A stretch of DNA of 3,458 nucleotides from sequence record FJ483839.1, one strand, 5' to 3'. Shown one piece after another: positions 1 through 3,340 of this stretch. The notes below the pieces were generated by a model. The model was not told the DNA's origin and ran no database searches. It was given only the letters and a program-made list of their open reading frames with translations. A program made the translations under genes and the position numbers. How positions within the stretch are numbered: position 1 is the stretch's first letter; each line of letters begins with the position of its first letter. Origin of the DNA: Escherichia phage BZ13.

Positions 1-128
1 GGGTGGGACCCCTTTCGGGGTCCTGCTCAACTTCCTGTCGAGCTAATGCCATTTTTTTAATGTCTTTAGCGAGACGCTACCATGCCGTTAGGTTTAGATG
101 ACGGTATATTCCATATACCGGAGGATCT
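1..128 (+). promoter_or_regulatory. 5' untranslated leader of the ssRNA phage genome (replication and translation-control region)
   Basis: Window starts GGGTGGGACCCCTTTCGGGGTCC..., which matches my recollection of the conserved 5' end of MS2/GA-type phage RNAs. No convincing gene starts before the maturation ATG at 129. A CTTCCT element at 31-36 could pair with the maturation gene Shine-Dalgarno. Confidence 0.85.
5..24 (+). promoter_or_regulatory. 5'-terminal stem-loop
   Basis: Seen directly: GGACCCC (6-12) is the exact reverse complement of GGGGTCC (17-23), with a 4-nt loop TTTC (13-16) and a possible G5-U24 wobble. A stable GC-rich hairpin at the extreme 5' end is characteristic of this phage family. 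Confidence 0.75.
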
Positions 129-1301
129 ATGTTTCCGAAGTCAAATATCGACAGAAATTACAAGGTTAAACTTATTTCTTACGACAAGAAGGGGAATCTT
201 GTTTCCGACGACTCTTTTGAGCAAGTCGAAAACTATCTCTTTCAAAACCGTTCGAATACGTATAAACCTGGATATATTCGTCGCGACTTTCGAAGACCAA
301 CTAACTTTTGGAACGGCTATCGCTGTTTCAATCAGCCAGTTGGTACCTTCACTCGGAAACTCTCTGATGGTGGGAGACAAGTTGCTGATTATGGCATTGT
401 GAACCCTAATAAGTTCACTGCCAACAGTCAGCACTTGGGGGACAACATGGTAATTTACCCTGGTCCCTTCTCTATAAATATTGATCAGCGTGCTTCTGTC
501 GAAGTCCTCAATAAGCTTTCACAGTCGAACCTCAATATTGGGGTTGCGATTGCTGAGGCTAAGATGACTGCTTCATTACTCGCTAAGCAATCTATAGCTC
601 TCATCAGAGCCTACACTGCTGCAAAGCGCGGTAATTGGCGAGAGGTGTTTTCTCAACTCCTCATCTCCGAACACCGTTTCAGAGCTCCTGCTAAGGATCT
701 CGGAGGTCGATGGCTCGAACTGCAGTACGGTTGGTTACCCCTTATGAGTGATTTGAAAGCTGCATATGATTTGCTCACGCAAACCAAACTGCCTGCTTTC
801 ATGCCCTTGAGGGTTACCCGCACCGTTGGCGGAACGCACAATTATAAAGTGCGCAACGTCGAATCTGCAGGGGATACTTGGTCCTATAGCGATCGTTTGT
901 CGGTGAATTACCGAATATGGTATTTCATTTCCGACCCGCGACTCGCATGGGCTAGTTCCCTTGGGCTTCTTAACCCTTTGGAAATCTACTGGGAAAAGAC
1001 GCCCTGGTCGTTCGTTGTTGACTGGTTCTTACCTGTCGGTAATCTTATAGAAGCCATGAGTAATCCTCTTGGCCTCGACATTATTTCCGGCACGAAGACC
1101 TGGCAACTTGAATCAAAACTTAACGCGACGCTTCCGGCTCCGGGTTGGTCTGGAACTGCAAAGTTGACTGCATATGCGAAAGCGTATGACAGATCGACTT
1201 TCTATTCCTTCCCCACCCCGTTGCCGTACGTGAAATCTCCACTTAGTGGGCTTCACCTAGCGAATGCGTTAGCCTTAATCAACCAACGCCTGAAAAGGTA
1301 A
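129..1301 (+). CDS. mat: Maturation (A) protein, 390 aa: pilus-binding and RNA-binding virion protein
   Basis: 390-aa ORF with GGAGG (120-124) upstream of the ATG at 129. The translation has blocks I recognise from the MS2 A protein: RGNWR, GRWLELQ(Y/F)[29 protein letters not shown], and a C-terminal ALALI-QRL. Position (first gene) and length fit the family. Confidence 0.93.
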
Positions 1302-1317: not shown

Positions 1318-1710
1318 ATGGCAACTTTACGCAGTTTCGTACTCGTCGATAATGGCGGTACGGGGAATGTTACTGTCGTTCCTGTTAGCAATGCCAACGG
1401 CGTCGCTGAGTGGCTTTCTAATAACTCACGCAGTCAAGCTTATCGCGTGACTGCCAGTTATCGTGCGTCAGGCGCGGACAAGCGCAAATACACCATTAAA
1501 CTTGAAGTACCGAAAATCGTTACTCAAGTTGTAAATGGAGTTGAGCTGCCTGTTTCCGCATGGAAGGCTTACGCCTCTATCGACCTGACCATCCCTATCT
1601 TTGCTGCAACCGATGATGTGACCGTTATTTCCAAGTCACTCGCTGGCCTGTTCAAAGTTGGGGACCCTATCGCCGACGCTATCTCTTCTCAGAGTGGCTT
1701 CTACGCGTAA
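1318..1710 (+). CDS. cp: Coat (capsid) protein, 130 aa including the initiator Met
   Basis: ORF preceded by GGAG at 1306-1309, 8 nt before the ATG at 1318. Protein begins MATLRSFVLVDNGGTGNVTVVP... and contains NGVAEWLSNNSRSQAY and LTIPIFA, which matches my recollection of GA-type coat protein and is clearly homologous to MS2 coat (FVLVDNGGTG, NGVAEW, SRSQAY, ELTIPIF). Stop TAA at 1708-1710. Confidence 0.95.
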   Translation: MATLRSFVLVDNGGTGNVTVVPVSNANGVAEWLSNNSRSQAYRVTASYRASGADKRKYTIKLEVPKIVTQVVNGVELPVSAWKAYASIDLTIPIFAATDDVTVISKSLAGLFKVGDPIADAISSQSGFYA

Positions 1711-1901
1711 TGGGTCTGAAAGCAAAACATAAGGAAAACCTATGTTCCGATTCACAGAGATCGAAAAGACTCTATGTATGGATCGCACTCGCGATTGTGC
1801 TGTCCGATTTCACGTCTATCTTCAGTCATTGGATTTGGGGTCTTCTGATCCTCATTCTCCGGACTTTGATGGACTTGCCTACCTTCGTGATGAATGTTTA
1901 A
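1710..1901 (+). CDS. lys: Lysis protein (L-type single-gene lysis protein), 63 aa
   Basis: ORF in a third frame whose ATG (1710-1712) overlaps the coat stop TAA (1708-1710) as TAATG, and which runs 160 nt into the replicase gene. Basic N-terminus (K, H, R rich) followed by a hydrophobic stretch LYVWIALAIVLSDFTSIFSHWIWGLLILIL. The AIVLSDF segment resembles MS2 L (AIFLSKF) and carries the conserved Leu-Ser dipeptide (codons at 1800-1805). Confidence 0.85.
   Translation: MGLKAKHKENLCSDSQRSKRLYVWIALAIVLSDFTSIFSHWIWGLLILILRTLMDLPTFVMNV
1726..1746 (+). promoter_or_regulatory. Coat-protein operator hairpin (translational operator of the replicase gene)
   Basis: Seen directly: AACAUA-A-GG-AAAA-CC-UAUGUU. 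Lower stem 1726-1731 pairs with 1741-1746, A1732 is unpaired (bulge), GG 1733-1734 pairs with CC 1739-1740, loop AAAA 1735-1738. The replicase ATG (1742-1744) lies in the 3' arm. Same architecture as the MS2 operator (ACAUG-A-GG-AUUA-CC-CAUGU). Confidence 0.9.
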
Positions 1902-3340
1902 CTAAACATCCCTCACTCGGAGACAGTAATTCGGACGCACGCCGTAAGGAATTGGCATATGCCAAACTTATGGATAGTGATCAAAGATGCAAAATCCAAA
2001 ACAGTAACGGATACGACTACTCTCATATCGAGAGTGGCGTACTGAGTGGTATACTCAAGACTGCTCAGGCCCTTGTGGCAAACTTGCTTACGGGTTTTGA
2101 ATCTCACTTCCTGAACGATTGTTCGTTCTCCAACGGAGCCTCACAAGGGTTCAAGTTGCGGGATGCAGCGCCGTTTAAGAAGATCGCTGGGCAAGCAACC
2201 GTTACAGCTCCTGCCTATGACATTGCCGTGGCCGCCGTTAAAACGTGCGCACCGTGGTATGCTTATATGCAGGAAACGTATGGCGATGAAACCAAATGGT
2301 TTCGTCGGGTGTACGGCAACGGTTTGTTTTCTGTTCCGAAGAACAATAAAATAGATCGGGCTGCCTGTAAGGAGCCTGATATGAATATGTACCTTCAGAA
2401 AGGGGCGGGATCTTTTATAAGAAAACGCCTTCGCTCCGTTGGTATAGATCTTAATGATCAAACGCGCAACCAGGAATTAGCCCGACTTGGCAGCATTGAT
2501 GGGTCGCTCGCTACTATTGATCTTAGTAGCGCTAGTGACTCCATCTCTGACCGTCTCGTCTGGGATTTACTTCCACCGCACGTCTATTCATACCTCGCTC
2601 GTATTCGCTCGTCTTTCACTATGATTGACGGGCGCTTACACAAGTGGGGTCTATTTTCTACCATGGGTAACGGCTTTACATTCGAACTCGAGTCCATGAT
2701 CTTTTGGGCCCTGAGTAAGAGCGTTATGCTGTCCATGGGTGTTACTGGCTCATTAGGCGTCTACGGTGACGATATAATCGTTCCTGTTGAATGTGCCCCG
2801 ACCCTCCTTAAGGTATTATCCGCTGTGAACTTTCTTCCGAATCAGAAGAAGACGTTTACGACGGGTTACTTTCGTGAGAGTTGCGGTGCTCATTTCTTTA
2901 AAGGCGCCGACATGAAACCTTTTTACTGCAAGCGGCCAATGGAAACCCTTCCCGATGTCATGTTGCTCTGCAACAGGATAAGGGGTTGGCAGACCGTTGG
3001 TGGAATGTCAGATCCGCGGCTCTTTCCGATTTGGAAGGAGTTTGCTGATATGATTCCGCCGAAGTTTAAGGGTGGATGTAACCTGGATCGCGATACTTAC
3101 CTCGTTTCACCTGATAAACCTGGTGTCACACTGGTTCGTATTGCTAAGGTACGCTCTGGTTTTAACCACGCGTTCCCGTACGGCTATGAAAACGGCCGTT
3201 ACGTCCATTGGCTACATATGGGATCGGGAGAAGTTCTCGAGACCATATCCTCCGCCAGGTTTAGGTGCAAACCTAACTCGGAATGGAGAACACAGATCCC
3301 TCTATTTCCTCAGGAATTAGAGGCCTGCGTTCTCTCCTGA
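1742..3340 (+). CDS. rep: RNA-directed RNA polymerase (replicase beta subunit), 532 aa
   Basis: Longest ORF, starting in the operator hairpin. Contains VPKNNKIDRAACKEPDMNMYLQKG, which matches my recollection of MS2 replicase, plus RdRp motifs: IDLSSASDSIS (motif A-like), STMGNGFTFELES (motif B-like), and YGDD at nt 2762-2773 (codons 341-344) as catalytic motif C. Ends with a tandem stop TGA-TAG (3338-3343). Confidence 0.96.
   Translation: MFRFTEIEKTLCMDRTRDCAVRFHVYLQSLDLGSSDPHSPDFDGLAYLRDECLTKHPSLGDSNSDARRKELAYAKLMDSDQRCKIQNSNGYDYSHIESGVLSGILKTAQALVANLLTGFESHFLNDCSFSNGASQGFKLRDAAPFKKIAGQATVTAPAYDIAVAAVKTCAPWYAYMQETYGDETKWFRRVYGNGLFSVPKNNKIDRAACKEPDMNMYLQKGAGSFIRKRLRSVGIDLNDQTRNQELARLGSIDGSLATIDLSSASDSISDRLVWDLLPPHVYSYLARIRSSFTMIDGRLHKWGLFSTMGNGFTFELESMIFWALSKSVMLSMGVTGSLGVYGDDIIVPVECAPTLLKVLSAVNFLPNQKKTFTTGYFRESCGAHFFKGADMKPFYCKRPMETLPDVMLLCNRIRGWQTVGGMSDPRLFPIWKEFADMIPPKFKGGCNLDRDTYLVSPDKPGVTLVRIAKVRSGFNHAFPYGYENGRYVHWLHMGSGEVLETISSARFRCKPNSEWRTQIPLFPQELEACVLS

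Follow-up and report, generated by a model that had tools for sequence, protein, structure and literature searches.

The junction between the coat and replicase genes of Escherichia phage BZ13 (FJ483839.1) raises a simple question: does the 63-codon open reading frame (ORF) that begins there and runs into the replicase gene encode a lysis protein, and if so by what means would it be expressed and act, or is it merely one of the long overlapping ORFs that arise by chance? The original prediction, made from the sequence alone, had taken it for an L-type single-gene lysis protein (Sgl). The whole stretch of DNA that was analysed (hereafter, the window) is 3458 nt long and, judging from its sequence, is the complete genome of a group II F-specific ssRNA coliphage of the GA/JP34/BZ13 type (Emesvirus japonicum), with the canonical levivirus gene order on the + strand (Table 1). 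Megablast searches of annotated phage records found the window to be 94.7% identical to GA (X03869 / NC_001426) across 98% of its length, 94.3% identical to BZ13 strain DL10, 85.6% to BZ13 strain T72, and 84.9% to KU1, and all four of these phages belong to E. japonicum, the serological group II F-specific RNA coliphages. The alignments with GA, DL10, and KU1 start only at approximately window position 79–82, and since they are absent for positions 1–78, the 5′ untranslated leader appears to be more divergent or indel-rich than other parts of the genome.

Table 1. Features of the window that bear on the lysis gene, with the basis for each.
Feature	Position	Strand	Basis or remark
Maturation gene	129–1301	+	ORF listing
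Coat gene	1318–1710	+	ORF and homology to GA coat; upstream ORF that would bring ribosomes to the L start
Replicase gene	1742–3340	+	ORF listing
Lysis gene (L / sgl)	1710–1901	+	63 codons plus stop; frame unlike coat and replicase; position in GA, P34702, PF11125
UAAUG junction (coat stop UAA and L start AUG with common A)	1708–1712	+	Read from the sequence; putative termination-reinitiation site
Predicted hairpin at the L start	1662–1717	+	Fold of 1660–1720
Replicase translational operator hairpin (coat-protein binding site), holding the replicase AUG at 1742	1726–1746	+	Predicted fold and GA annotation
L domain 1, basic polar N-terminus (residues 1–20, net positive)	1710–1769	+	Composition
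L domain 2, hydrophobic LYVWIALAIV before Leu-Ser	1770–1799	+	Composition
Leu-Ser dipeptide L31-S32, L-like motif	1800–1805	+	Alignment
L C-terminal part (residues 33–63) with second hydrophobic stretch WIWGLLILIL	1806–1898	+	Hydropathy, predicted model
Dual-coding zone (replicase codons 1–53 / L codons 11–63)	1742–1901	+	Synonymous-variation and divergence counts

The ORF opens with an ATG at 1710–1712, closes with a stop codon at 1899–1901, and encodes a product of 63 aa, MGLKAKHKENLCSDSQRSKRLYVWIALAIVLSDFTSIFSHWIWGLLILILRTLMDLPTFVMNV. Its first nucleotide, the A at 1710, is common to the TAA of the coat gene and the ATG of L (TAATG), giving a 1-nt overlap between the two. The start coordinates of coat, L, and replicase fall in three different frames, as had been claimed, and the overlap with the first 160 nt of the replicase gene can be read directly from the coordinates. 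The architecture of the product likewise proved to be as first described. The N-terminal third, called highly basic, contains 6 K/R and 1 H versus 2 D/E in residues 1–20, with a hydrophobic fraction of 0.30. The hydrophobic segment of roughly 30 residues corresponds to residues 21–50, which are 80% hydrophobic, and within it the ten residues directly before the Leu-Ser (LS) dipeptide are hydrophobic without exception. Membrane character was judged by Kyte-Doolittle hydropathy, where the 19-residue mean peaks at 1.77 (residues 21–39) and 1.73 (residues 42–60), level with the 1.74 of the transmembrane region of MS2 L. The LS dipeptide does sit in a context resembling that of MS2 L, as LAIVLSDF of the window aligns with LAIFLSKF of MS2. 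Finally, a single-sequence AlphaFold2 model gave one continuous helix over residues 4–62 (mean pLDDT of 79, highest in residues 21–60), which agrees with a membrane helix but carries little weight, because hydrophobic peptides commonly model as helices.

The lysis gene of GA/JP34/BZ13-type phages is in fact already known, and has been annotated since the GA record X03869, where positions 1717–1908, labelled ‘put. lysis protein’, correspond to window 1710–1901 after a 7-nt offset. Lysis coding sequences are annotated at the matching place in DL10 (1664–1855), T72 (1645–1839), and KU1 (1735–1929) as well. The exact 63-aa product is on deposit as the lysis protein of phage JP34 (UniProt P34702, LYS_BPJP3) and as ACT66727.1 (BZ13) and BAE54354.1, with no residue differing from the window. 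Group II lysis proteins share 95–98% identity with the window product; that of GA (P07233) is 95% identical, has the same position, length, UAAUG, and frame relations, and differs in three residues (Q16E, I49Y, and R51Q). Alignment with MS2 L by BLASTP gave 43% identity over 51 aa. The product also matches the Pfam family Phage_MS2_lysis (PF11125) at 30.6 bits (E = 3.3e-7), above the curated gathering cutoff of 25 bits, with residues 6–53 on profile positions 2–46 of 54; the database representative of its 90% cluster bears the same family, and the match to phrog_8450 has an E value of 1.8e-32. A further Pfam match, to TraY, fell below the cutoff (E = 0.15) and was dismissed as noise.

Searches of wider scope agree with this picture. 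Six-frame tblastn against 50,697 phage records matched 288 of them, and among the matches listed each lies on an annotated lysis gene in an MS2/fr-type or group II record. A word-indexed search of 5.8 billion proteins returned a single cluster, consisting of group II L proteins, and found no distant relatives; the wider relationships of L were drawn from Pfam, tblastn, and manual inspection of ORFs. The latter included AVE017 (NC_073941), a third Emesvirus species whose RefSeq record carries no lysis CDS. An ORF at 1523–1945 of that genome spans the coat-replicase junction in a third frame, unlike those of coat and replicase, and ends ...FAVSAICLSKYINQ...; its L-like C-terminus (...FAVSAICLSKYINQYLANLL...) aligns with MS2 and group II L, LS included. 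In a seven-sequence alignment of group II L, MS2 L, and the AVE017 ORF, the invariant residues include C12, V23, A28, I29, L31, and S32, and V23, A28, I29, and L31-S32 are invariant across the three Emesvirus species. Annotated position in relatives, the exact deposited match, a Pfam score above cutoff, and architecture all support the assignment of 1710–1901 as the lysis (L / sgl) gene, homologous to MS2 L, and nothing was found that contradicts it.

It is nevertheless worth asking what the length of the ORF contributes, since the original prediction held that so long an ORF, overlapping an essential gene, is evidence of function by itself. That argument fails. When replicase codons were shuffled, 52% of the shuffled replicases contained, in an alternative + frame, an ORF that starts with ATG and encodes at least 63 aa, and the median longest ORF was 64 aa. 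The window itself has three other alternate-frame ORFs of at least 63 aa on the + strand (82–402, 2163–2354, and 3072–3320), all of them broken in relatives. The frequency of such chance ORFs speaks for a reading in which 1710–1901 is non-functional and owes its conservation to RNA constraints at the coat-replicase junction (the operator hairpin, the ribosome-binding site of replicase, and long-range pairings) together with constraint on the replicase protein, and it is against this reading that the comparative data have to be weighed.

What separates the L frame from its controls is its persistence. The three + strand control ORFs have internal stops in T72 and KU1, with 82–402 broken in four of four relatives, and each of four minus-strand control ORFs is disrupted in at least one relative; altogether, none of the seven controls survives in every relative, and for most of them the cause is an internal stop in T72/KU1. 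The L frame, on the other hand, is intact in five of five group II genomes and is also open in MS2 and AVE017, so that the interrupting stops by which the prediction might have fallen were not encountered in these homologous genomes. Conservation of the overlapping frame, which the original prediction invoked, is not visible in one sequence; once measured across genomes, it does back the lysis-gene conclusion. As for the first of these controls, the 106-aa ORF at 82–402 (+) starts upstream of the maturation gene, has its ATG in this genome only, and contains one to three stops in GA, DL10, T72, and KU1, and is therefore very likely spurious.

Constraint on the replicase codons that overlap L points in the same direction. 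Synonymous third-position variation in replicase codons 1–53 is strongly suppressed, occurring in 3 of 47 eligible codons versus 164 of 391 elsewhere (Fisher p = 3e-7), and is the lowest among all 53-codon windows of the replicase gene. The L overlap is also the genome’s least divergent 160-nt stretch relative to KU1/T72: 160-nt windows starting at 1718–1731 show 2 differences from that sub-lineage, and the overlap 2–3, as compared to a median of 50, and between the window and KU1 there are no differences among the 160 positions of 1742–1901, where 25.6 would be expected. Few sites in the overlap vary at all. One of them, 1861 (R51/Q51 in L and synonymous at P40 of replicase), is occupied by G in KU1 and the window but by A in the other three genomes (GA, DL10, and T72), a pattern at odds with whole-genome relatedness, which places the window with GA and DL10, and therefore suggestive of homoplasy or recombination. 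Another is 1854–1855, one of the few spots of the dual-coding zone that tolerate change, where an adjacent double substitution in GA (AT>TA) alters both proteins (H38L in replicase and I49Y in L).

Not all of this conservation can be credited to the L protein. The operator hairpin and the replicase Shine-Dalgarno (SD) sequence and AUG lie inside L codons 6–13, and low divergence runs ~80 nt beyond the L stop codon (1718–1980), with synonymous variation in replicase codons 54–106 (18%) also under the average. Both of these observations lend some weight to the non-functional reading, and the latter implies that RNA-level constraints share in the conservation of 1718–1980. Part of the nucleotide conservation there must come from RNA elements such as the operator hairpin and the replicase start. 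Low divergence also recurs in the 5′ part of the coat gene (1320–1499) and in replicase at 2100–2219, and in all three regions the constraints beyond L coding are probably those of RNA structure. RNA constraint does not, however, account for the protein-level evidence: a frame of 63–75 codons is open in three species at 32–40% protein identity, with LS invariant and the hydrophobic layout kept, and its product matches PF11125 above cutoff. Moreover, the KU1 protein, identical over residues 6–63, is lytic when expressed alone, and GA lysis-lacZ fusions have been shown to be translated from the equivalent AUG (PMC9955659). By analogy with the published expression of Sgl-KU1, the chance-ORF reading is effectively refuted, and its remaining probability is negligible. 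The identity of 1710–1901 as the group II lysis gene, its homology, architecture, and cross-genome conservation, and the dual-coding constraint upon it are all shown by the present analysis.

The manner in which L is translated can be approached through its start site. SD-like elements precede the starts of the maturation (GGAGG), coat (GGAG), and replicase (TAAGGA) genes by 3–8 nt, and no SD-like 4-mer was found in the 20 nt that precede the L AUG. The L start is furthermore predicted to be sequestered in a hairpin. Folding of 1660–1720 gave −22.8 kcal/mol (z = −2.52, with one of 200 shuffles as stable), in a structure where GGACCC at 1662–1667 is paired with the G of the L AUG plus the GGUCU after it, and whose inner stem-loop (1675–1701) coincides with a GA feature annotated as ‘pot. 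function in lysis gene control’ (1683–1707). When 1660–1760 is folded in one piece the z-score is an unremarkable −1.49, and only sub-hairpins stand out. The window, GA, and DL10 have one and the same sequence from the 3′ end of the coat gene to the replicase AUG, UAAUG included, and in GA this junction has been dissected experimentally. The GA lysis gene lacks an SD sequence and is read strictly by coat-finishing ribosomes that re-bind at the AUG of UAAUG (Inokuchi et al., PMC9955659). Removal of coat translation or mutation of that AUG abolished expression of the lysis gene, and deletion analysis uncovered no element permitting independent initiation (PMC9955659).

By analogy with GA, L of the window is thus almost certainly expressed through termination-reinitiation at UAAUG, a mode of expression that can be proposed here with high confidence. 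The fraction of ribosomes terminating on coat would be the sole translators of L: with no SD sequence and with its AUG in a predicted hairpin, L would be translated only by some of the ribosomes that have just finished coat. Synthesis of L would as a result be low and tied to that of coat, and lysis would be delayed. The KU1/T72 lineage has a different arrangement, with an 18-nt insertion after the coat stop codon and a lysis start of UUG, 18 nt downstream; this implies a coupling geometry unlike the UAAUG of the window, GA, and DL10. In T72 (1620–1650) and KU1 (1710–1740), the coat stop codon sits in the loop of a perfect hairpin formed by CUACGCC-UAA-GGCGUAG. The spacing in KU1/T72 indicates that the strict 1-nt overlap is dispensable in group II, and it could be taken to favour direct ribosome entry at AUG 1710, independent of coat translation. 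For the window, such entry is very unlikely, given the missing SD-like sequence in the 20 nt upstream, the burial of the start in the predicted hairpin, and the loss of downstream expression when coat translation is removed from the identical junction of GA, in which no independent element was found (PMC9955659). Coupling to coat at UAAUG accordingly remains the preferred reading for L, and it leads to the question of how the product might act.

The LS motif of L-like Sgls was reportedly defined by Chamakura in 2017. The family definition applied here was taken from later papers that summarise that work (e.g. PMC10229422, PMC10614894), and the role of the motif in L-like Sgls has been described (PMC10229422). 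The window product has the positively charged N-terminus of variable length that characterizes domain 1, the hydrophobic stretch before LS that forms domain 2, and LS at the C-terminal end of the latter as domain 3, and its gene occupies the expected place, spanning the boundary of coat and replicase in an alternative frame. For MS2 L, it has been shown that the C-terminal hydrophobic part is enough for lysis and that the protein inserts into membranes (PMC10688784, PMC10229422), where it oligomerises through its transmembrane domain (PMC10688784). On this model, L of the window would have a short, basic N-terminus in the cytoplasm and, after it, a helical hydrophobic region with the conserved Leu-Ser, would insert into the inner membrane, and would probably oligomerise via its hydrophobic domain.

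The closest experimental evidence for lytic activity comes from Sgl-KU1 (AAF67675.1), whose residues 7–64 are identical to residues 6–63 of the window product, so that the whole hydrophobic, LS, and C-terminal part is shared. KU1 differs in the 18-nt insertion between coat stop and lysis start, the UUG start, one extra residue, and L3Q. Sgl-KU1 was lethal to E. coli in Dub-seq screens, and a screen for its multicopy suppressors yielded 36 genes, which form a complex pattern of envelope homeostasis, as with MS2 L, and include no single target gene (PMC10229422). It lyses E. coli while incorporation of 3H-mDAP continues, and the blebs that form are distributed, small, unstable, and not septal, which makes it a type II (L-like) Sgl (PMC10614894). 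Lytic activity and a type II phenotype can be carried over to the window product by homology with this near-identical protein, in which case L would provoke envelope lesions and autolysis with net peptidoglycan synthesis unstopped.

Type I Sgls act quite differently. Qbeta A2, phiX174 E, Sgl-M, and Sgl-PP7 inhibit MurA, MraY, or MurJ, upon which peptidoglycan synthesis stops abruptly and septal blebs appear. Sgl of the Pseudomonas phage PP7 is instructive in this regard, as it resembles L of the window in being small, with a basic N-terminus, a hydrophobic domain, a Leu-Ser, and a gene at the coat-replicase junction, and yet has no detectable sequence similarity and is a type I inhibitor of MurJ (PMC10229422, PMC10614894). 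Architecture alone, then, does not fix mechanism, and an L-like layout with an LS motif is no guarantee of an L-like mode of lysis (PMC10229422, PMC10614894). It is conceivable on these grounds that L of the window is likewise a ‘protein antibiotic’ that blocks a single enzyme in the supply of lipid II, such as MurJ, but this is very improbable. Unlike PP7 Sgl, the window product is truly homologous in sequence to MS2 L, and Sgl-KU1, identical in residues 6–63, keeps up 3H-mDAP incorporation until lysis with non-septal blebs (PMC10614894) and has the complex, MS2 L-like suppressor profile of 36 genes noted above, lacking a single target gene (PMC10229422). The phenotype of this near-identical protein is the opposite of type I, and L of the window is for that reason not classed as such. 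As a whole, the best explanation of the locus, and one that we hold to be very highly probable, is a group II L/sgl gene that is coupled to coat at UAAUG and encodes a membrane-acting product of type II.

MS2 L (75 aa) shares the general plan of the window product, with a basic N-terminus, a hydrophobic domain, LS, and a C-terminal tail, and it too is read in a third frame over the replicase start and is translationally coupled to coat. The two differ at their N-termini. MS2 L starts 50 nt inside the coat gene, whereas group II L starts exactly at the coat stop codon, and alignment shows that group II L lacks the 16 N-terminal residues by which domain 1 of MS2 L is longer, in the region that binds DnaJ in MS2. 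This DnaJ-binding N-terminal domain is dispensable in MS2 L (PMC10688784, PMC10229422). The remainder of domain 1 in group II may owe its sequence to RNA. The operator folds as ((((((.((....)))))))) with a bulged A, in the shape of the MS2 operator, and corresponds to the ‘pot. binding site coat protein’ annotated in GA at 1733–1753. Together with the replicase SD sequence and AUG, it encodes KHKENLC of L (codons 6–13), which aligns with KHEDYPC of MS2. The likeness of domain 1 between groups I and II may therefore be driven by RNA and not selected in the protein; in other words, the cross-group similarity may be a by-product of RNA conservation. Adler et al. have pointed out that DnaJ may be dispensable for other L-like Sgls (PMC10229422). 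Given the 16 missing residues and the operator-encoded KHKENLC, group II L, without much of the DnaJ-binding domain 1 of MS2 and with the rest perhaps shaped by RNA, could be a ‘minimal’ L made by nature, with a lytic action that does not depend on DnaJ, an idea that we put forward tentatively and consider somewhat less probable than its opposite.

The lysis-gene reading of 1710–1901 is real, correctly interpreted, and ordinary, in the sense that it was already known: the coupling of the GA lysis gene has been published, as has the lytic activity of a protein nearly identical to L, the exact protein is in UniProt, and the window adds nothing new on what L-type Sgls target in the cell envelope. 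It does demonstrate that an embedded single-gene lysis ORF is recognisable by a tool-free reading of its architecture alone, where the arguments that hold are the architecture and the Leu-Ser context, and the one that fails is ORF length. Should group II L indeed be a DnaJ-independent ‘minimal’ L, the conservation of 1718–1900 (no differences from KU1 in 160 nt, at a genome divergence of 16%) would represent a triple constraint of L, replicase, and regulatory RNA, and group II L would be better suited than MS2 L to the search for the target of L.
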